Assembly: GCA_026397155.1 (NCBI GenBank)
Contig: JAPLVJ010000041.1
Coordinates: forward strand, 1-33,027
Direction of reading: 5' to 3'
Source: Candidatus Berkelbacteria bacterium
GTDB taxonomy: Bacteria; Patescibacteriota; UBA1384; JAPLVJ01
DNA: 33,027 nucleotides
Shown here piece by piece: positions 2,953 through 32,379 of this stretch. A program made the translations under genes and the position numbers. The notes beneath the pieces were generated by a model, which was given only the letters and a program-made list of their open reading frames with translations, was not told the origin of the DNA and did not search any database. Position 1 is the first letter of the stretch. The number at the start of each line of letters is the position of its first letter.

Positions 2953-3042
2953 TGGCGGAGAGGGCGGGATTTGAACCCGCGATGCCCTTGCGGACATACT
3001 TGCTTTCCAAGCAAGCGCACTAGGCCACTATGCGACCTCTCC
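2953..3042 (-). tRNA. tRNA-Ser (anticodon GGA), type II with long variable arm and encoded CCA
   Basis: The reverse complement reads GGAGAGGTCGCATAGTGGCCTAGTGCGCTTGCTTGGAAAGCAAGTATGTCCGCAAGGGCATCGCGGGTTCAAATCCCGCCCTCTCCGCCA. The acceptor stem is 7 bp (GGAGAGG/CCTCTCC). The anticodon stem CTTGC/GCAAG carries the loop TTGGAAA. The long extra arm is GTCCGCAAGGGC, and the T-arm has GGTTCAAATCC. Confidence 0.92.
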
Positions 3043-10081: not shown

Positions 10082-10711
10082 ATGATACAGATTGCAGTTA
10101 TGGTCTCGGGGCATGGCCGAGGGAGCAATCTTCAGGCGATCATTGATGCCTGCAAAGAGAATCGGATTAACGGTGGGGTCATCGTGGTCATCGGCGTGAA
10201 GGATGACGCGCCTGCGATGGAACGCGCCCGTAGCCAGGGCATTTCGGCGATCGAAGTGCGCCCCAAGGCATTCGACTCCGACGAGGCGTACGGCCAAGCT
10301 GTGCTCGATGTCCTTGCCGAGCACAAGGCCGATCTCGTGTGCCTCGCCGGGTACATGCGCATCCTCCCTTCCAACATCGTGAGTGCGTACCGGTGGCGCA
10401 TCATGAACATCCATCCGGCGCTGATACCGCTCTTCTGCGGGAAGGGGATGTTCGGCGAACACGTCCATCAGGCGGCGCTCGATTACGGGGTGAAGGTCTC
10501 GGGCTGCACGGTCCATTTCGTGGACGAGGAATACGACACCGGCCCCATCATCATCCAGAAAACCGTGCCTGTCGAGGAGGGCGACACAGCCGAGACCCTG
10601 GCCGCCCGCGTGCTCATTCAAGAGCACAAGGCGTACCCCGAGGCGATCCAGCTCTTCTCCCAGGGCCGCTTATCGGTCGAGGGTCGCGTGGTTCACATTC
10701 ACCCAAAGTAG
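10082..10711 (+). CDS. purN: phosphoribosylglycinamide formyltransferase (GAR transformylase)
   Basis: 209 aa with canonical PurN motifs: VMVSGHGRGSNLQAIID, NIHPALIP and GCTVHFVDEEYDTGPIIIQ. A GGAGG SD lies 7 nt upstream of the ATG. The G+C content is far above the rest of the window. Antisense and alternate-frame ORFs over it are GC-driven artefacts. Confidence 0.9.
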   Translation: MIQIAVMVSGHGRGSNLQAIIDACKENRINGGVIVVIGVKDDAPAMERARSQGISAIEVRPKAFDSDEAYGQAVLDVLAEHKADLVCLAGYMRILPSNIVSAYRWRIMNIHPALIPLFCGKGMFGEHVHQAALDYGVKVSGCTVHFVDEEYDTGPIIIQKTVPVEEGDTAETLAARVLIQEHKAYPEAIQLFSQGRLSVEGRVVHIHPK

Positions 10712-24731: not shown

Positions 24732-25943
24732 ATGAAAATTTTGGGGATTGAAACAAGTTGCGACGAAACTGCCGCGGCAATCGTTGAGGTAAAAAATGAT
24801 TGCACGCAGGCGAGTCCGAGAATTAAAATTCTTTCAAATATTGTTTCGTCTCAAATTAAAATCCATCGAAAATACGGCGGAGTGTTTCCAGAACTTGCTT
24901 CAAGGGCACATTTGGAAAATATTATACCAGTTTTAAAAGAAAGTCTAGAGGAATCAAAAACAAAATTAGATGCAATCGATTTAATCGCTGTAACTGTTGG
25001 CCCAGGATTAATTGGTTCACTTTTGGTTGGCGTAAATACGGCTAAAACCATAGCCTATACATTAGAAAAACCAATAATTGGGGTTAATCATTTGGAAGGA
25101 CACGTGTATTCCGCCCCTGGCGGAGAGCGCCAAAAAAACAAAACGTTTATGGCGAGCTTGGAAGCTCAAAGTGGGTCGCAAGCGCATTGGAAGGCCGAAA
25201 GCCGCACCAATAAAGCGCACATCTTTGAGCGACAAGCGAGCCAAGATTTTCAGTTTCCCGCTCTCGTCCTGATAGTCTCTGGCGGACATACCTCCTTGGT
25301 TCTGATGCACAATCACGGAGATTTTAAAATAATCGGCCAAACAAGAGATGATGCAGCTGGCGAGGCATTTGATAAAGTAGCAGCGCTTCTCGGGTTACCA
25401 TACCCCGGAGGACCAGCAATAGAGAGAATTGTCCAAAAAGCTGGTCTAAAATCTCACTTCTCAAGCCTGAAATATAAGCTCCCGCGACCAATGATTGATT
25501 CAAAAGATTTTGATTTTTCATTTTCTGGCTTAAAAACAGCAGTGCTTTATCTAGTAAAACAATTGCCAGACGACCAGATACAAAAAGTTAGACAACAAAT
25601 TGCAGCTGAATTTCAGCAAGCAGTTATTGATGTTCTGATCCAAAAAACTTTGCAAGCCGCAAAAAAATATGACACTAAAACAATAATACTTTGCGGCGGC
25701 GTTTCAGCAAACTCTTTACTGCGCAAAGAATTTGAATTAAAAATTAACTTTGCCCGAAAGGGCAGTGCTGCGAAGGCAGATTTTTATAAATTAAAAATTG
25801 ACTTTTTGGTTCCGCCAAAAAATCTCTGTACTGACAACGCAGCTATGATTGCCATCGCTGGATGTTTTAAGTCCTTGGAAAAGAAGCCAGATAAATGCTA
25901 CAATATCTATGCTGACTCAAATGCAAAATTACTCAGCTGGTAA
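24732..25943 (+). CDS. tsaD: tRNA N6-adenosine threonylcarbamoyltransferase TsaD, carrying a 31-aa in-frame element insertion
   Basis: 403 aa with GIETSCDETAAAIV, HLEGH, SGGHT and CTDNAAMIA. It is about 60 aa longer than typical TsaD, because of GC-rich in-frame patches. Confidence 0.92.
   Translation: MKILGIETSCDETAAAIVEVKNDCTQASPRIKILSNIVSSQIKIHRKYGGVFPELASRAHLENIIPVLKESLEESKTKLDAIDLIAVTVGPGLIGSLLVGVNTAKTIAYTLEKPIIGVNHLEGHVYSAPGGERQKNKTFMASLEAQSGSQAHWKAESRTNKAHIFERQASQDFQFPALVLIVSGGHTSLVLMHNHGDFKIIGQTRDDAAGEAFDKVAALLGLPYPGGPAIERIVQKAGLKSHFSSLKYKLPRPMIDSKDFDFSFSGLKTAVLYLVKQLPDDQIQKVRQQIAAEFQQAVIDVLIQKTLQAAKKYDTKTIILCGGVSANSLLRKEFELKINFARKGSAAKADFYKLKIDFLVPPKNLCTDNAAMIAIAGCFKSLEKKPDKCYNIYADSNAKLLSW
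25150..25242 (+). repeat. 93-nt GC-rich palindromic element, copy 1 (in frame inside tsaD)
   Basis: 90/93 identical to 28083-28175. G+C is 53/93. End-to-end hairpin potential: GGC/GCC, GCTTG/CAAGC, GCTCAAAG/CTTTGAGC, GCGC/GCGC, ATTGG/CCAAT and GGC/GCC around CGAAA. Confidence 0.9.
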
Positions 25944-25948
25944 AGATT

Positions 25949-28504
25949 ATGAAACTATCAAAAACATACGATCCTTCTAAGGTAGAGGGTAAAATTTATC
26001 GCTTTTGGGAAAAGAAAAAATGCTTTAAACCCGAACTAAAACCCAAAGCAAAACCTTACTGCATTATTATGCCGCCGCCAAATGCCAATGCCCCGATGCA
26101 TTTAGGCCACGCTGTTTTTGTTACTTTGGAAGATTTAATGATTCGATATAAACGCATGAAAGGCATGGCTGCCTTATGGCTACCTGGTGCAGATCATGCT
26201 GGATTTGAAACCCAGGTTGTTTTTGAAAAAAAACTGGAAAAACAAGGCAGAAACCGCTTTGAAATCCCGCGTGAAATACTTTTTAGAGAAATGTGGGATT
26301 TTACTCAAGAAAATAAAAAAACAACAGAAAACCAACTTAAAAAACTCGGCGCTAGCTGCGACTGGGATAGGGAAAAATTTACACTTGATCCAGATATTAT
26401 TAAAATTGTCTACCGCACTTTCAAAAAGCTGTATGATGATGGGCTAATTTATAGGCAATATAGACCAGTAAACTGGTGTCCAAAACACAAAACCGCCCTT
26501 TCTGATCTAGAAACAAAATATATTGAAAAAAATGATCCTCTTTATTACATCAAATATGGACCCTTGACCCTAGCTACTGTTAGACCAGAAACTAAATTTG
26601 GTGATACAGCCGTAGCTGTCAATCCAAAAGACAAACGTTATCAAAAATATATTAAAAAAGAAATTAAGGCAAAAGGAATTTTGGGACCACTAAAATTTAA
26701 AGTCATTGCTGATGAAGCTGTTGATCCAAAGTTTGGCACTGGTGTTGTCAAAGTAACCCCAGCTCATGATCCAATTGACTTTGAAATTTGGCAAAGACAC
26801 GAAAAAGAAATCCCTGGTCCTTGTATTGTGATTAATGAAAGTGGTCGGCTGACAAAAGAAACAGGGAAATTTGCTGGACTAAAAGTACTAGAGGCGCGCG
26901 AAAAAGTGGTTGAAGAAATGAAGAAAATTGGCATTTTAGAAAAAATAGATTCAAGTTACAAACACACAATCGCCACCTGCTACAAATGCGGAAACACGGT
27001 TGAACCACTACCAAAAGAGCAGTGGTTTGTTGCTGTTAATAAAAAAGGTAAATCTGGTAAAGCGCTTGCTCCGGACGCCTTAAAAGCAGTCAAAGAGAAA
27101 AAGGTTCAATTTGTGACCAAGCGATTTGAAAAAATATTTAACCACTGGATGCAAAATATTCGCGACTGGAATATTTCACGCCAAATTGTTTGGGGAATCA
27201 GAATACCAGTTTGGTACTGCCAAAATACAAAGCCATTTGAAGATAAAAAAATGGGCTTTGCTGGCAATATTGTTCCCCAGGTATTTAAAAATAAAACAAA
27301 AACCTATCGCCTACGGGATCACTGCTTTAAGGTTAGCGATAAAGTTGCCTTTGAAAATAGTCAAAAAGGAGAAATTTTCGGCTACGGAACCATCATTGAA
27401 ATTAAAAAAACAACAGTCGAAAAAGTTGACCTCAAAGATCCAAAACATGGAACAACATACAAAAAATTGGATGAACTAATTTTAGCTTTCAAGAAACATC
27501 ATCCTGACAAAAAAGTAACTCCTAAAACATTGGTTTGGATTTATATCTATAAATTTGAGGAAAAGAAAAAGTGCAGTCCCTTGATTACACTAGGTCAAAA
27601 GCCAGCTCAATGTCCGATCTGTGGCGACAAAAATTTATCCCAAGACCCAGATGTCTTTGATACTTGGTTTTCTTCTGGGCAGTGGCCGTTTGCAACCTTA
27701 CAAACAACAAAACCAGGCGATTTTGAAAAATTTTATCCAACAGAAATAATGGAAACTGGCTGGGATATTCTTTTCTTTTGGGTGGCTAGAATGATCATGC
27801 TTGGACTTTATGAAACTGGGAAAGTGCCTTTCAAAAAGGTTTATTTACATGGCTTGGTCCGCGACAAAGATCGCCAAAAAATGAGTAAATCAAAAGGAAA
27901 TGTGATCGATCCCTTGGGCGTTGCCGAACAATACGGAACTGATGCTATTAGAATGGCTCTAGTTTTTGGAACAAACGCTGGAAACGATATTATTATTTCG
28001 GAAGAAAAAATCCGCGGCATGAGAAATTTCGCTAACAAAGTTTGGAATGTGGCAAGATTTGTTTTAATGCAAACTGAAATTGTGGCAAGCTCGGAAGCTC
28101 AAAGTGGGTCGCAAGCGCATTGGAAGGCCGAAGGCCGCACCAATAAAGCGCACATCTTTGAGCGACAAGCGAGCCCAAAAACCATCGCCGACCGAAAAAT
28201 CTTGCAAAAACTCGATAGTCTTATTGCTAAAATTGATAAAGATTTGAACAATTTCCGTTTTGGTCAGGCCGCCAGTGATCTTTACGATTTTATCTGGCAC
28301 GATTTTGCCGATAAGTATATTGAAGAATCAAAAAATCAACTCCAAGACGAAAAAACCAAACAAAACACCCAAGAAACCCTACTCTACACACTTAAAACAA
28401 GTCTCAAATTGCTTCACCCGTTTATGCCCTACGTAACCGAAGAAATTTGGGGAAGGTTACCCGGCTACAAAAAACCTCTAATTGTTTCCGACTGGCCCAA
28501 ATGA
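25949..28504 (+). CDS. valS: valine--tRNA ligase with an internal ASCH-like insertion, a 31-aa element insertion, and no C-terminal coiled-coil domain
   Basis: 851 aa. The HIGH-type motif (PNANAPMHLGHA) and KMSKS (QKMSKSKGN) are present. Editing-domain motifs TKFGDTAVAVNP and GTGVVKVTPAHDP are present. The protein ends right after ...EEIWGRLP...WPK. Confidence 0.93.
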   Translation: MKLSKTYDPSKVEGKIYRFWEKKKCFKPELKPKAKPYCIIMPPPNANAPMHLGHAVFVTLEDLMIRYKRMKGMAALWLPGADHAGFETQVVFEKKLEKQGRNRFEIPREILFREMWDFTQENKKTTENQLKKLGASCDWDREKFTLDPDIIKIVYRTFKKLYDDGLIYRQYRPVNWCPKHKTALSDLETKYIEKNDPLYYIKYGPLTLATVRPETKFGDTAVAVNPKDKRYQKYIKKEIKAKGILGPLKFKVIADEAVDPKFGTGVVKVTPAHDPIDFEIWQRHEKEIPGPCIVINESGRLTKETGKFAGLKVLEAREKVVEEMKKIGILEKIDSSYKHTIATCYKCGNTVEPLPKEQWFVAVNKKGKSGKALAPDALKAVKEKKVQFVTKRFEKIFNHWMQNIRDWNISRQIVWGIRIPVWYCQNTKPFEDKKMGFAGNIVPQVFKNKTKTYRLRDHCFKVSDKVAFENSQKGEIFGYGTIIEIKKTTVEKVDLKDPKHGTTYKKLDELILAFKKHHPDKKVTPKTLVWIYIYKFEEKKKCSPLITLGQKPAQCPICGDKNLSQDPDVFDTWFSSGQWPFATLQTTKPGDFEKFYPTEIMETGWDILFFWVARMIMLGLYETGKVPFKKVYLHGLVRDKDRQKMSKSKGNVIDPLGVAEQYGTDAIRMALVFGTNAGNDIIISEEKIRGMRNFANKVWNVARFVLMQTEIVASSEAQSGSQAHWKAEGRTNKAHIFERQASPKTIADRKILQKLDSLIAKIDKDLNNFRFGQAASDLYDFIWHDFADKYIEESKNQLQDEKTKQNTQETLLYTLKTSLKLLHPFMPYVTEEIWGRLPGYKKPLIVSDWPK
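28083..28175 (+). repeat. 93-nt GC-rich palindromic element, copy 2 (in frame inside valS)
   Basis: It has the same orientation and codon phase as copy 1. The three differences are at element positions 5, 10 and 50. The apex change A to G converts GGC-CGAAA-GCC into GGCC-GAA-GGCC. Confidence 0.9.
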
Positions 28505-29520: not shown

Positions 29521-32379
29521 ATGAAAAAGTTATCCAAAATAATCATTTTTACTATTCTAGCCGTCTTTTTAGCTAGCTTTTTTGGTTTTTCAAATACTAA
29601 AGCAGATCTCCCGGGACCTGCGGGCGACCCAGACGCTCGCCCTTCTGATTGCCACACTCTAATACCCCTTGTCACTCAAACAGCAAACGAGAGTACTGTT
29701 CTTAGATGCGCTACATTTTCACCAGCTGGATATACTGTCAATCTTTGGTATGGGGATAAAGACAAAACTACAGGAAATGAAGCTTTTAATTTTGCGGGCA
29801 CTGCCGATTGGGGTGTCGCAGGCACAGGAGACATAGGAGACTATGTATACAGAAGCACAAAAAGACCTGAATTTTATATTGCAGTAGCACGCAAAGACCA
29901 ATTGGGTGTAGTACAAGCAATATATGTTACTCATCATTACAAAGTTGGTGAGAACTTAAGATGGGATGAAAATTCTGCAGACGATAGAATGTATTCTGTC
30001 TACAAAGTTGGAGATGACACACCCAATTTGCCTGATTATAGAAATGCTTTTGATAATGGCAAGCGCTTTGTTTGGAGAATAGTCGTTAATGGTAAAATCA
30101 CTTTAAACAACGAGATAGTAAAGGGAGCAATTGTAAAATTAAAGGTTGACAACTCCGCGGGTCCTGCATTAGACCAAGTCACAAGTAACGATGAGGGAGT
30201 ATTTGAATTTTCATATGTAGGAACAAACGAAGACATATGGATTAATCAGGGAACCGTCAGTAAAATATTCCTTTATGTACAAACGGAGAAAGATAATAAA
30301 TACCAGATTTATAAAGAAATAGCCTTTCCCCAAGGATTCGTACCGCACGGTGACCAGGATACAAAAATGGCAAATCTAGGAACTATTAATTTAACTACAG
30401 AGAACAAAGTCGATAATTTTACCGAGGAAGCCGGAGGAGAACAATCAACCACAGAAGAAGCAATCGGCGCTGATTCCGAATCCCAATGCGAAAAAGAAGC
30501 GTGCAGAGGTACCGGTGGGTGGCTAAGCATCAAAGGCGTATTCTGTAAATTAGGCTGTGCTATTGTTGGTTTAATCGGGGACTTTGTTAACTTTGCCATG
30601 AAACTACTGAATGAAGCCTCTGGTTTAACTCAAAACTTTTTCGGAGTTGAGCATGCCTACGCAAAACCCCTTTCAGAACAATTAAAGGCCCAACAAGTGG
30701 TCAACGGCTGGAAATTTGCTTTAACTTTTACTGATATTCTGATTGTTTTGGCATTAATGGTTCTTGCTTTTGCAAATATTTTAAAGATAAGCATTGACAC
30801 TTATGCCATCAAAAAGTCACTTTTTCCTTTAATTATCGGGGTCATTTTGGCAAATTTAAGTTTATTAATCTGCCAAGTAATTGTTGATTTTTCTTCTTTG
30901 CTTTCTGATTATTTTATCAAGATTGGCGGGAGCTGGTCGGCTACTGGTGGTGGACCAATGGCTGGATATGGTCCAGGGAATCTTGGGGATAAAATAGCCA
31001 GCTTGATGGGCATCAGCCCTGCTGCAACTGGTGGAGTAGCAATTGCAACAATTCTTGGTGCAATAATAACGGCGGCAATTGTTCCTCAGGCCGGTTGTAT
31101 TGTTGCCATTGCTGCAGTTGTTTTTTTGGCTTTGCCGGGTCTTTTAATTTTGGCCCTTGCCTTTTTGATGTATGCGCGGGTTTATGTTGTCTGGATATTA
31201 ACAATCATGGCACCGCTTGCTTTTATTTGTTTGGGCATCCCACCATTACAGCAATATTTTAAGCAATGGTGGTCGTGGTTTACTAAATGGGTCTTTTTAG
31301 CGCCGATTGCCTATTTCTTTATTAGTTTGGCGGCTGTTTTGGGTAGCGTAACTTGGGCCAGTAGCGACAATAAACTCTCTATATTTGGCGGCTGGCTTTT
31401 GGGTATGGTTGTTTTGGGAATGGCAATTATGATTCCTTTCAAAATGGGCGGACCGATCATGGCTGCATGGGCTGCCTGGGGCAAGAAAGGCGGAAAATTG
31501 ATTGGCGGTTTGGCTGACATTGGAATCTCAAAAGTAACCAAGGGGTGGTCTCCTTATGGAGTTTACACCGGAGTCAAGCAGGCTTATGAAGCTGGATGGA
31601 AACGACATACAACAGAAGTAACTGGTAAGGGACGAGCACTGGGAGAAACAATGACTGCACTACCCAGAACTGGTTGGCATAGAGCTAGACAAAAACTTAT
31701 GGGACTAAAAACTTCAGGAAGTCTTAGGGGTGTAGCCAAAGAACAAATGAAAAGTAGAGAATCTATAAATGCAGGCCAAGAAGTAGACAGAATTTTACAA
31801 GAAACACAAATACCATACGGCGGCACGGAGTTAAATAATTTTCTACAAAGCGCTATACAAAACAATGATATTGGTATGGCCGCACCAGCTATGGCTAGGG
31901 CTGCCGAAGAAGGAACATTGACTGACGAAAACTTTAGAGGTTTTGCTGCTACATTTAAAGGTGATTTAAAAGCTCAAGCAACGATAAATAAAGTAGAAAA
32001 TTTATCAGTCCAGTCAGGAAATGGCCCCTCTATTTCTCCGGTCAAAATCGAAAATGGACAACCAGAACCACTATCGGATGATGAAGTTAAAGATAAAAAT
32101 AGACTTCTACAAAAATCAATGTTTGGCAAAAATACTGCTCAACAACAACAGCTTATCAATAATATGATTGGCCGTATTAATTCAGATATAACCACTAGAA
32201 GCCCTGGGAAAGATATTACCAGTGCTAATTTTCTTCAGGACCTTACCCCGGGCGAAAAACAAATTATGCGATTTTTGCATCAGATTTATCAACATGAAGG
32301 AAATAAATCCGTCCTGCTTAAAAGTGTTTTAAACAGGATCCAACCCCACATGGACCGTCTAAATCAACCAACTCCTTGA
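29521..32379 (+). CDS. large secreted/polytopic membrane protein, possible TrbL/VirB6-like channel component
   Basis: 952 aa. After a signal peptide (IIFTILAVFLASFFGFSNTKA) comes an extracytoplasmic region of about 300 aa. That region includes a CarboxypepD_reg-like beta-sandwich stretch (GAIVKLKVDNSAGPALDQVTSNDEGVFEFSY). An acidic linker and a Cys-rich patch follow. Then come about 7 TM helices, including ARVYVVWILTIMAPLAFICLGIP. The soluble C-terminal region is about 330 aa. The family assignment is architecture-based only. Confidence 0.8.
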   Translation: MKKLSKIIIFTILAVFLASFFGFSNTKADLPGPAGDPDARPSDCHTLIPLVTQTANESTVLRCATFSPAGYTVNLWYGDKDKTTGNEAFNFAGTADWGVAGTGDIGDYVYRSTKRPEFYIAVARKDQLGVVQAIYVTHHYKVGENLRWDENSADDRMYSVYKVGDDTPNLPDYRNAFDNGKRFVWRIVVNGKITLNNEIVKGAIVKLKVDNSAGPALDQVTSNDEGVFEFSYVGTNEDIWINQGTVSKIFLYVQTEKDNKYQIYKEIAFPQGFVPHGDQDTKMANLGTINLTTENKVDNFTEEAGGEQSTTEEAIGADSESQCEKEACRGTGGWLSIKGVFCKLGCAIVGLIGDFVNFAMKLLNEASGLTQNFFGVEHAYAKPLSEQLKAQQVVNGWKFALTFTDILIVLALMVLAFANILKISIDTYAIKKSLFPLIIGVILANLSLLICQVIVDFSSLLSDYFIKIGGSWSATGGGPMAGYGPGNLGDKIASLMGISPAATGGVAIATILGAIITAAIVPQAGCIVAIAAVVFLALPGLLILALAFLMYARVYVVWILTIMAPLAFICLGIPPLQQYFKQWWSWFTKWVFLAPIAYFFISLAAVLGSVTWASSDNKLSIFGGWLLGMVVLGMAIMIPFKMGGPIMAAWAAWGKKGGKLIGGLADIGISKVTKGWSPYGVYTGVKQAYEAGWKRHTTEVTGKGRALGETMTALPRTGWHRARQKLMGLKTSGSLRGVAKEQMKSRESINAGQEVDRILQETQIPYGGTELNNFLQSAIQNNDIGMAAPAMARAAEEGTLTDENFRGFAATFKGDLKAQATINKVENLSVQSGNGPSISPVKIENGQPEPLSDDEVKDKNRLLQKSMFGKNTAQQQQLINNMIGRINSDITTRSPGKDITSANFLQDLTPGEKQIMRFLHQIYQHEGNKSVLLKSVLNRIQPHMDRLNQPTP

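Follow-up and report, generated by a model that had tools for sequence, protein, structure and literature searches.

Two genes of a Candidatus Berkelbacteria bacterium, tsaD and valS, carry near-identical in-frame copies of a GC-rich palindromic element of 93 nt. The element is one of a small family of palindromic repeats that occurs in a few Patescibacteria. We consider it probable (roughly 65%) that the element is non-autonomous and an analogue of the Rickettsia palindromic elements (RPEs) and of the MITEs (miniature transposable elements with inverted repeats) that are compatible with open reading frames (ORFs), and that it is tolerated and translated within permissive surface loops of its host proteins. 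The DNA analysed is contig JAPLVJ010000041.1 of assembly GCA_026397155.1 (33,027 nt), which as a whole we call the window; coordinates are window positions unless a locus is named. W1 and W2 denote the copies in tsaD and valS, respectively, and L- and P-numbers denote loci and proteins obtained in searches.

A palindromic element inside tsaD and valS

An earlier note on this DNA, made from the sequence alone, had reported that the two copies agree at 90 of 93 positions and share orientation and codon phase. A gap-free alignment bears this out: both copies lie on the plus strand, they differ at 25154 (G/A), 25159 (T/C) and 25200 (A/G), and both begin at the second position of a codon (base 25150 belongs to the ATG at 25149-25151, and 28083 likewise occupies codon position 2). 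A repeat search stretches the repeat to 96 nt at 96% identity, with similarity ending a few bases beyond either side. The length of 31 codons leaves both ORFs open, and the encoded peptides are exactly as had been quoted. As had also been described, the element is GC-rich (53/93) within AT-rich genes (G+C of 0.39 in tsaD outside the element and of 0.38 in valS). A core 30-mer of the element occurs exactly twice in the window and in none of 100 dinucleotide shuffles. Scanning the window with a covariance model, filters off, gave no third copy; a 15.6-bit match at 31914-32024 was rejected as an unrelated weak hairpin (z = -1.8).

Each window copy is predicted to fold into one long hairpin, with minimum free energies of -38.8 kcal/mol for W1 and -36.3 kcal/mol for W2 (z = -3.93 and -3.21). 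None of 200 shuffled sequences folds as well. Every helix of the end-to-end palindrome proposed in the earlier note is present in the predicted fold. From base to apex W1 consists of P1 (25151-53/25240-42), a tandem G.A, P2 (25156-60/25233-37), P3 (25164-71/25223-30), a conserved internal loop UGGGUCGCAA, P4 (GCGC/GCGC), P5 (AUUGG/CCAAU) and the apex GGC-CGAAA-GCC. The substitution at the apex (A->G, 25200/28133) had been described as preserving pairing; pairing is indeed kept, but the change does more than that, since it turns a C.A mismatch in W1 into a C-G pair in W2. The reverse strand and the single-stranded DNA of the element fold equally well, and the codons GCG AGC stand identically at both ends of W1 (25152-57 and 25236-41). 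No promoter-like or terminator-like site coincides with either window copy.

W1 lies, as had been noted, between the HLEGH and SGGHT motifs of the translated TsaD, and the TsaD family models align to the protein in two stretches that the insert divides. W2 lies in the anticodon-binding region of ValS, in a variable loop that follows the RNFANKVWNVARFVL helix. As a separate observation on ValS, concerning roughly residues 435-560, two separate stretches are matched by the class I synthetase model, many ValS homologues of ~700-760 aa align over only half of the query, and one homologue has an ASCH domain match; the catalytic half of the protein may contain an additional domain as an insert.

Comparison with orthologues supports the view that the element is not native to TsaD or ValS. 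The gene order femAB-tsaD-valS-TPR is common to the window and the loci L025, L026 and L027, all three of which have a short TsaD loop (GGEIRNSKLEINFPA versus GGERQKNKTFM[31 aa]QDFQFPA in the window). The ValS loop is without the element in L026 and L027, and L023 also has an empty valS site. The element is absent from the closest syntenic relatives, as it is from ~170 kb of related loci. Among the best-scoring 120 TsaD homologues only P0016 has the insert, and the 119 listed ValS homologues are all without it. The closest homologues of the two proteins among 5.8 billion proteins are ~62% identical over their full length, which means that the lineage of the window is poorly sampled. In Thermotoga maritima TsaD (PDB 6nak_B), 4 residues stand opposite residues 127-168 (42 residues) of the window protein. 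An AlphaFold model of TsaD built on 120 homologues (mean predicted local distance difference test score, pLDDT, of 89; predicted template modelling score, pTM, of 0.88) shows the insert as a loop of low confidence attached to a core of high confidence: mean pLDDT in blocks of 10 residues is 43-52 over residues 131-170, the insert being 140-170, versus above 90 for most of the core. A flexible loop appended to the protein surface would have this appearance in a model, in line with the exposed loop that the earlier note had anticipated.

A repeat family in Patescibacteria

Searches beyond the window, which the earlier note had proposed, yielded five more full copies from three other Patescibacteria sources, bringing the family to seven full copies in four sources. 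An exact scan with a 22-mer of the 5' core, run on one genome for each of 185,579 species, found L001 and L002, two contigs of the groundwater metagenome-assembled genome (MAG) H43-bin058_1 (JBBUEO01). A pattern scan of JGI metagenomes with the 3' end, the block left out of the 22-mer, found L001 and L002 again, together with L008 and L018, two contigs of the SDBV01 metagenome, and a half-copy, L006. L001, L002 and L006 come from Hainich groundwater wells, for which metatranscriptomes exist (10.1101/2025.05.30.656956). A third route led through protein: the TsaD homologue P0016 has AQSGSQA...KRTSLSDKRA in the same loop, and its DNA, L020 (from the European Nucleotide Archive), contains a clear copy of the element. 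The copies came from different seeds, so that for each block there are copies reached by another route which confirm its conservation. A covariance model built from W1, W2, L001 and L002 recognises all seven full copies at 68-121 bits (68-106 bits for the five outside the window) and nothing else in the sequence examined; L018, L020 and L008, which are independent of model building, score 68-80 bits. Twelve of the 17 loci returned by the 3'-end scan are without the core, and most of these are GC-rich contigs that we take as chance matches. The covariance model also recognises neither L005 nor L017 (GC 0.41), the former having a 23-nt match to the 3' end and the latter several AAGCGAGC repeats.

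The half-copy L006 (~1430-1501) contains the 3' half only. It is of the L002 subtype with its side hairpin, is preceded by AT-rich GAATTT-like repeats and lies just downstream of a gene on the opposite strand. The 5' truncation may be what a deletion left behind, or it may hint at the copying mechanism.

Four of the five full copies outside the window are intergenic, in either orientation relative to neighbouring genes (Table 1). Family members range from 92 to 122 nt, with core lengths of 94, 98, 98 and 122 nt for the intergenic copies, and the apex varies in both length and sequence, L002 having an extra side hairpin. The basal two thirds, by contrast with the variable apex, are nearly invariant, including the unpaired UGGGUCGCAA loop and the tandem G.A of the basal stem, and the element ends in the 9-nt termini GCGAGCTTG ... 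CAAGCGAGC with their conserved tandem G.A mismatch. On the model-guided alignment 95.6% of the cells are paired, and four pairs have changed on both sides; P5, for example, occurs with compensatory changes as AUUGG/CCAAU, AUAGG/CCUAU and ACAGG/CCUGU. The covariation score of the alignment is attained by none of 500 shuffles, and the pairing is lost when the partners are slid against each other. Since this covariation comes from seven related sequences, it supports a conserved structure and is not proof of one. By our own count the wobble cells number 3 for G.U and 5 for A.C/C.A, with no strand preference. L020, L008 and L018 form a subtype that shares ACAGG/CCUGU, and the window copies are closest to L001 and L002.

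Libraries of known families did not place the element. Rfam returned no family match at either gathering or permissive thresholds (E<=10), giving for the window only a tRNA-Ser elsewhere and a meaningless match to RT-17 (E = 8). The 33-aa peptides of both copies match nothing in Pfam or NCBIfam at E<=10, libraries that presumably include the TIGRFAM models of RPEs. Viral, phage and plasmid collections held no match to the element. The only match to the 33-aa peptide in an exhaustive phmmer search of 1.84 billion cluster representatives was to a BspA-like repeat protein and is false; as these representatives stand for clusters at 50% identity, insert-bearing members may be hidden within the clusters. 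A concatenation of the four open-frame translations matched nothing in an index of 5.8 billion proteins, a negative that is uninformative because the search also missed P0016 and the TsaD and ValS of the window, the two window proteins sharing 30 identical residues with the query; negatives that this word-indexed search gives for short or composite queries are not to be relied on.

Probable repeated insertion in one TsaD loop

The copy in L020 permits a comparison of constraint on nucleotides and on peptide. Across the element, the window and L020 have 81% identity, versus 61% for the DNA and 60% for the protein of the surrounding tsaD. A different apex length in L020 shifts the frame inside the element, so that the second half reads PVKRTSLSDKRA rather than the NKAHIFERQAS of the window, and the gene stays open. 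Conserved nucleotides with a differing peptide indicate that the constraint, or a recent common origin, lies with the nucleic acid and not with the peptide, which argues against a functional protein module. Constraint of this kind is compatible with a mobile element that needs its structure for propagation, or with an RNA function; the lack of strand preference and the intergenic copies facing either way lean slightly towards a role at the DNA level or one that does not depend on orientation.

A homologous peptide at this site in distant TsaD proteins had been put forward by the earlier note as the mark of native sequence, and one such protein, P0016, does have one. The nearer relatives of both insert-bearing proteins are without it, however. 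Over conserved columns the window TsaD is 0.63 identical to P0016 and 0.75 identical to P0004, and P0016 is 0.67 identical to P0025, with the element absent from both P0004 and P0025. This distribution argues for independent insertion, and together with the placement of L020 in a different subtype it makes two gains more parsimonious than a single gain with many precise losses after it, even if homogenisation within a genome could blur the subtype signal. L030, tried as a close relative of L020 on account of its similar gene order, proved uninformative, its TsaD being only 46% identical.

The loop between HxEGH and SGGHT varies from 17 to 68 residues (mode 19-20) among 120 Patescibacteria TsaD homologues, and in other lineages it holds at least three other, unrelated inserts that form hairpins (Table 1). 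L021 and L022 come from near-identical strains in which the copy number of the heptamers differs, so that the frames read VAKGDSAAKAE versus CRQRRQCCEGR with the gene open in both, which looks like slippage-driven frame switching within a tolerated loop. The insert of L031, GTCATTACGAGCGAA...CCTCGCAATGAC, is translated as SLRAKRSEARQSQ...IASSPASPDPRNDN. Hairpin repeats seem to use the loop generally as a landing site. Elsewhere in the window tsaD a second, small double hairpin (Table 1) encodes about ARKGSAAKAD, a segment that is missing from most TsaD orthologues and over which pLDDT dips to ~70. Its motif GTGCTGCGAAGGCAG recurs at other TsaD positions in other Patescibacteria (P0003, P0005, P0006 and P0007). 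These hairpins are outside the 93-nt family and are yet the same phenomenon.

Table 1 Element copies, host genes and other hairpin inserts, in window positions or by locus.
Feature	Location	Strand or orientation	Description
Element copy 1 (W1), in tsaD	25150..25242	+	93-nt imperfect palindrome, 31 codons (ASLEAQSGSQAHWKAESRTNKAHIFERQAS); covariance model 121 bits
Element copy 2 (W2), in valS	28083..28175	+	covariance model 116 bits
Host gene tsaD	24732..25943	+	403 aa; TIGR03723, 393 bits; Pfam TsaD
Host gene valS	25949..28504	+	851 aa; tRNA-synt_1 and Anticodon_1
Second small GC-rich double hairpin in tsaD	25751..25779	+	TGCCC-GAAA-GGGCA, GTG, CTGC-GAAG-GCAG; in frame
L001 copy	between ksgA and the preceding gene	antisense to both	
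L002 copy	between divergent genes		
L008 copy	upstream of a gene	sense	
L018 copy	between prfB and its neighbour	antisense	
L020 copy	tsaD, HxEGH-SGGHT loop		coding, open
Insert of L021 (1592-1741) and L022	tsaD loop		double hairpin with tandem heptamers, (AAATCCG)n and (TACAAAT)n, on its flanks
Insert of L031, within 895-2034	tsaD loop		long palindrome GTCATTACGAG...CTCGCAATGAC
Insert of L032, within 1501-2754	tsaD loop		another unrelated long hairpin

Three further features of the window lie apart from the two host genes. A 619-nt island at 10082-10711 (+), with G+C of up to 0.78 in 40-nt windows against 0.33-0.44 otherwise, is a complete purN-like ORF (Formyl_trans_N, Pfam 1.3e-54) that was probably acquired horizontally and recently. 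A short GC-rich hairpin, CGAGCCCTCGCAGAGGGCGAGCC, at 2906-2935 adjoins a tRNA-Ser gene (2953-3042, -), and GC-rich sequence, CCCTTCGACTCGCTACGCTCACTCAGGG, occupies 1363-1417 in what looks like an intergenic gap, just downstream of the point where an ORF on the minus strand (1462-1968) stops.

Origin of the element and its relation to known repeats

Under the reading that we prefer, that of a mobile palindromic repeat tolerated in surface loops, one copy would have entered the HLEGH-SGGHT loop of TsaD and a near-identical copy the variable anticodon-binding loop of ValS, the spread between the two genes occurring either by transposition of some kind or by local copying across 2.9 kb. Both copies would survive in essential genes because their length is a multiple of three, their frame is free of stops and the sites tolerate extra residues. 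The element would then be transcribed with each gene and translated as a hydrophilic, probably disordered loop of 31 residues without a function of its own. None of the three coding copies contains a stop, and all of them leave the frame downstream intact, as selection on translated inserts predicts and as neither excision nor bypass needs, which favours translation. There is precedent in Rickettsia guanylate kinase, where an RPE was shown experimentally to be a translated and tolerated insert (PMC2229807). The hairpin, its conserved internal loop and the termini are most likely recognised by some trans-acting mobilisation machinery, recognition that would explain why nucleotides and pairing are conserved alongside an unconserved peptide.

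Several observations weigh against this reading. There is neither a transposase nor a longer parent element near any copy. A target duplication, for which the earlier note had suggested looking, is absent at every boundary offset: no direct repeat of 2-8 nt is shared by the flanks of the seven copies at offsets of +/-8, and the only repeats are internal to the element. Copy number looks low, with two copies in this window of 33 kb; the 22-mer scan matched a single MAG among its 185,579 species genomes and the JGI scan five true contigs. The unpaired nucleotides (UGGGUCGCAA and the tandem G.A) match the stems in their degree of conservation, which fits an RNA or a protein-binding function too. 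Two of the three known coding copies occupy the same TsaD loop, which could mean targeting over random insertion followed by selection. The window element has four of six frames open, only weakly unusual against an expectation of ~2/6 for its composition (p ~0.09, our own estimate), and other copies have 2-4. What the sequences themselves show is the repeat family, the conservation of its structure, its lack in orthologues and its position in loops; translation, mobility and neutrality are inferred.

Of the other explanations, a functional structured RNA acting in cis, such as a site of RNase III or RNase E processing, an mRNA-stability hairpin or a protein-binding site through which the coding copies regulate tsaD and valS, the spread of the element being secondary, is in our judgement unlikely. 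It would account for a hairpin that is stable on either strand, for the compensatory changes and for an internal loop and tandem G.A that are conserved across genomes within an element more conserved than its host gene; Correia and ERIC repeats do affect mRNA processing (PMC2229807), and several neighbours of the copies are translation-related (tsaD, valS, ksgA, metG and prfB). Genes of that kind are simply common in such small genomes, however, and the copies face either way with respect to the genes beside them, their contexts being unrelated. The wobble counts show no strand preference (3 cells of G.U versus 5 of A.C/C.A), neither an Rfam family nor a promoter or terminator feature coincides with the element, and syntenic relatives express the same genes without it. 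Clearly less probable still is a nucleic-acid module with a sequence-specific partner that homes repeatedly to the tsaD loop in unrelated Patescibacteria and acts on, or is removed from or skipped in, the mRNA of translation-related genes. The loop itself, so variable in length and content, explains the recurrence without targeting. Were the idea correct, bacterial protein genes would hold an intervening or regulatory element of a new kind.

Patescibacteria have unusual intervening sequences in their rRNA genes, and the element might be eliminated at the RNA level, leaving the proteins unaltered, either as an intron-like intervening sequence or through translational bypass of the byp or T4 gene 60 type. 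We regard this as very unlikely. A GC-rich hairpin inside AT-rich genes does resemble the byps (cited in PMC6649704), and the matching GCG AGC codons at the ends of W1 could in principle serve as take-off and landing sites. Yet open coding copies that keep the downstream frame are unnecessary under removal, no stop follows the putative take-off codon, and most known copies are intergenic, where splicing or bypass is meaningless. A self-splicing or archaeal-type intron was rejected: Rfam gives no match to a group I, group II or other intron family at E<=10, and the basal loops, 2x2 and 3x2, are unlike a bulge-helix-bulge with its 3-nt bulges 4 bp apart. That the insert is an ancestral, lineage-specific functional loop of TsaD, later copied into ValS, is most improbable. 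The homologous insert of P0016/L020, at the equivalent position of the same loop, speaks for it; against it are the nearest relatives of both proteins (0.75 and 0.67, versus 0.63 between the two carriers), which are without the insert, the frame change that alters the second half of the peptide, the presence of the same DNA between genes elsewhere and the low model confidence across the segment. An assembly or chimera artefact we consider extremely improbable: the window genome is represented in collections by itself alone, but both copies are in frame within one contig, and the family occurs in four independent assemblies from different projects, once more inside tsaD.

Among known systems the closest are RPEs (Ogata et al. 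2000, 2002), which, so far as PMC10969869 and PMC2229807 summarise them, are in-frame insertions into conserved genes; in-frame fusions of MITEs and RPEs are documented, including in conserved enzymes that stay active (PMC10969869, PMC2229807). Like RPEs, the element is a stem-loop repeat of ~100 nt found both between genes and in frame inside conserved genes, its inserts are open and placed where the protein tolerates insertion, its host has a small, AT-rich, host-dependent genome, and it has no clear target duplication and no known transposase. It differs in lacking any sequence or peptide similarity to the library families (Rfam, Pfam and NCBIfam), in belonging to another phylum, in its length (92-122 nt versus 105-146 nt) and in the far fewer copies seen so far. 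Each RPE family, moreover, encodes a conserved peptide, which the Patescibacteria copies do not, and distant hosts share the nucleotides of the element to an unusual degree (81%, with 61% for the host gene). The suggestion of an RPE-like invader of coding regions therefore holds for behaviour and not for homology: the element is an analogue of RPEs, not a member.

Much the same is true of the ORF-compatible MITEs (ERIC/IRU, the 107-bp Correia/NEMIS, and YPAL; PMC2229807), which are also small, give an end-to-end stem-loop transcript, have contiguous open frames and are occasionally fused in frame to host ORFs, but which have TA or other target duplications and in some cases ties to known families of insertion sequences, neither of which the element shows. 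It shares with MITEs generally a small size with terminal inverted repeats and dispersed copies with filled and empty sites, and departs from them in the missing target-site duplication. The ~350 kb of sequence examined held no insertion sequence (IS) that has the same ends and a transposase. Repetitive extragenic palindromes (REPs) and the bacterial interspersed mosaic elements (BIMEs) that they form, with their RAYT transposases (PMC3733652), are likewise GC-rich palindromes without target duplication whose hairpins are thought to be recognised as single strands; they are 20-40 bp long, begin with GTAG or CGTC and are extragenic, whereas the element is 93 nt, begins 5' with (G/A)GCGAGC and lies in ORFs. 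The mitochondrial byps of Magnusiomyces and T4 gene 60 (cited in PMC6649704) resemble it as GC-rich mobile hairpins in AT-rich coding regions, but byps break the frame and must be skipped, unlike the open, in-frame copies described here. The coding palindromes of Nematomorpha mitochondria (PMC6649704) are stable hairpins in translated genes too, but they have conserved residues on both arms and are not dispersed, whereas the element is an extra loop absent from orthologues. A diversity-generating retroelement was rejected since the differences between W1 and W2 (G/A, T/C and A/G) are not adenine-specific in either direction, and integron attC sites, retrons, k-turns and signal recognition particle RNA were dropped because, by our own reading of the sequence, their defining motifs are absent.

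The element is thus a new family of a known type in a new host lineage. Full-text searches, with incomplete coverage of the literature, found no paper linking Patescibacteria or the candidate phyla radiation (CPR) to RPE-like or MITE insertions in coding regions, in agreement with the earlier note, which was not aware of any such description. Two points are modestly surprising, namely how strongly the nucleotides are conserved among distant hosts and how several hairpin families recurrently use a single TsaD loop. The finding extends the phenomenon of coding palindromes, best documented in Rickettsia, to the Patescibacteria/CPR, another tiny, AT-rich, host-dependent lineage, and it traces to a concrete source some of the lineage-specific insertions that hamper the alignment and annotation of CPR proteins. 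Such inserts should be expected and masked by gene callers, in domain models and in phylogenomic alignments when Patescibacteria are studied. The TsaD loop, as the landing site of at least four unrelated hairpin repeats, is a natural marker for the spread of these elements and for their absorption by essential enzymes.

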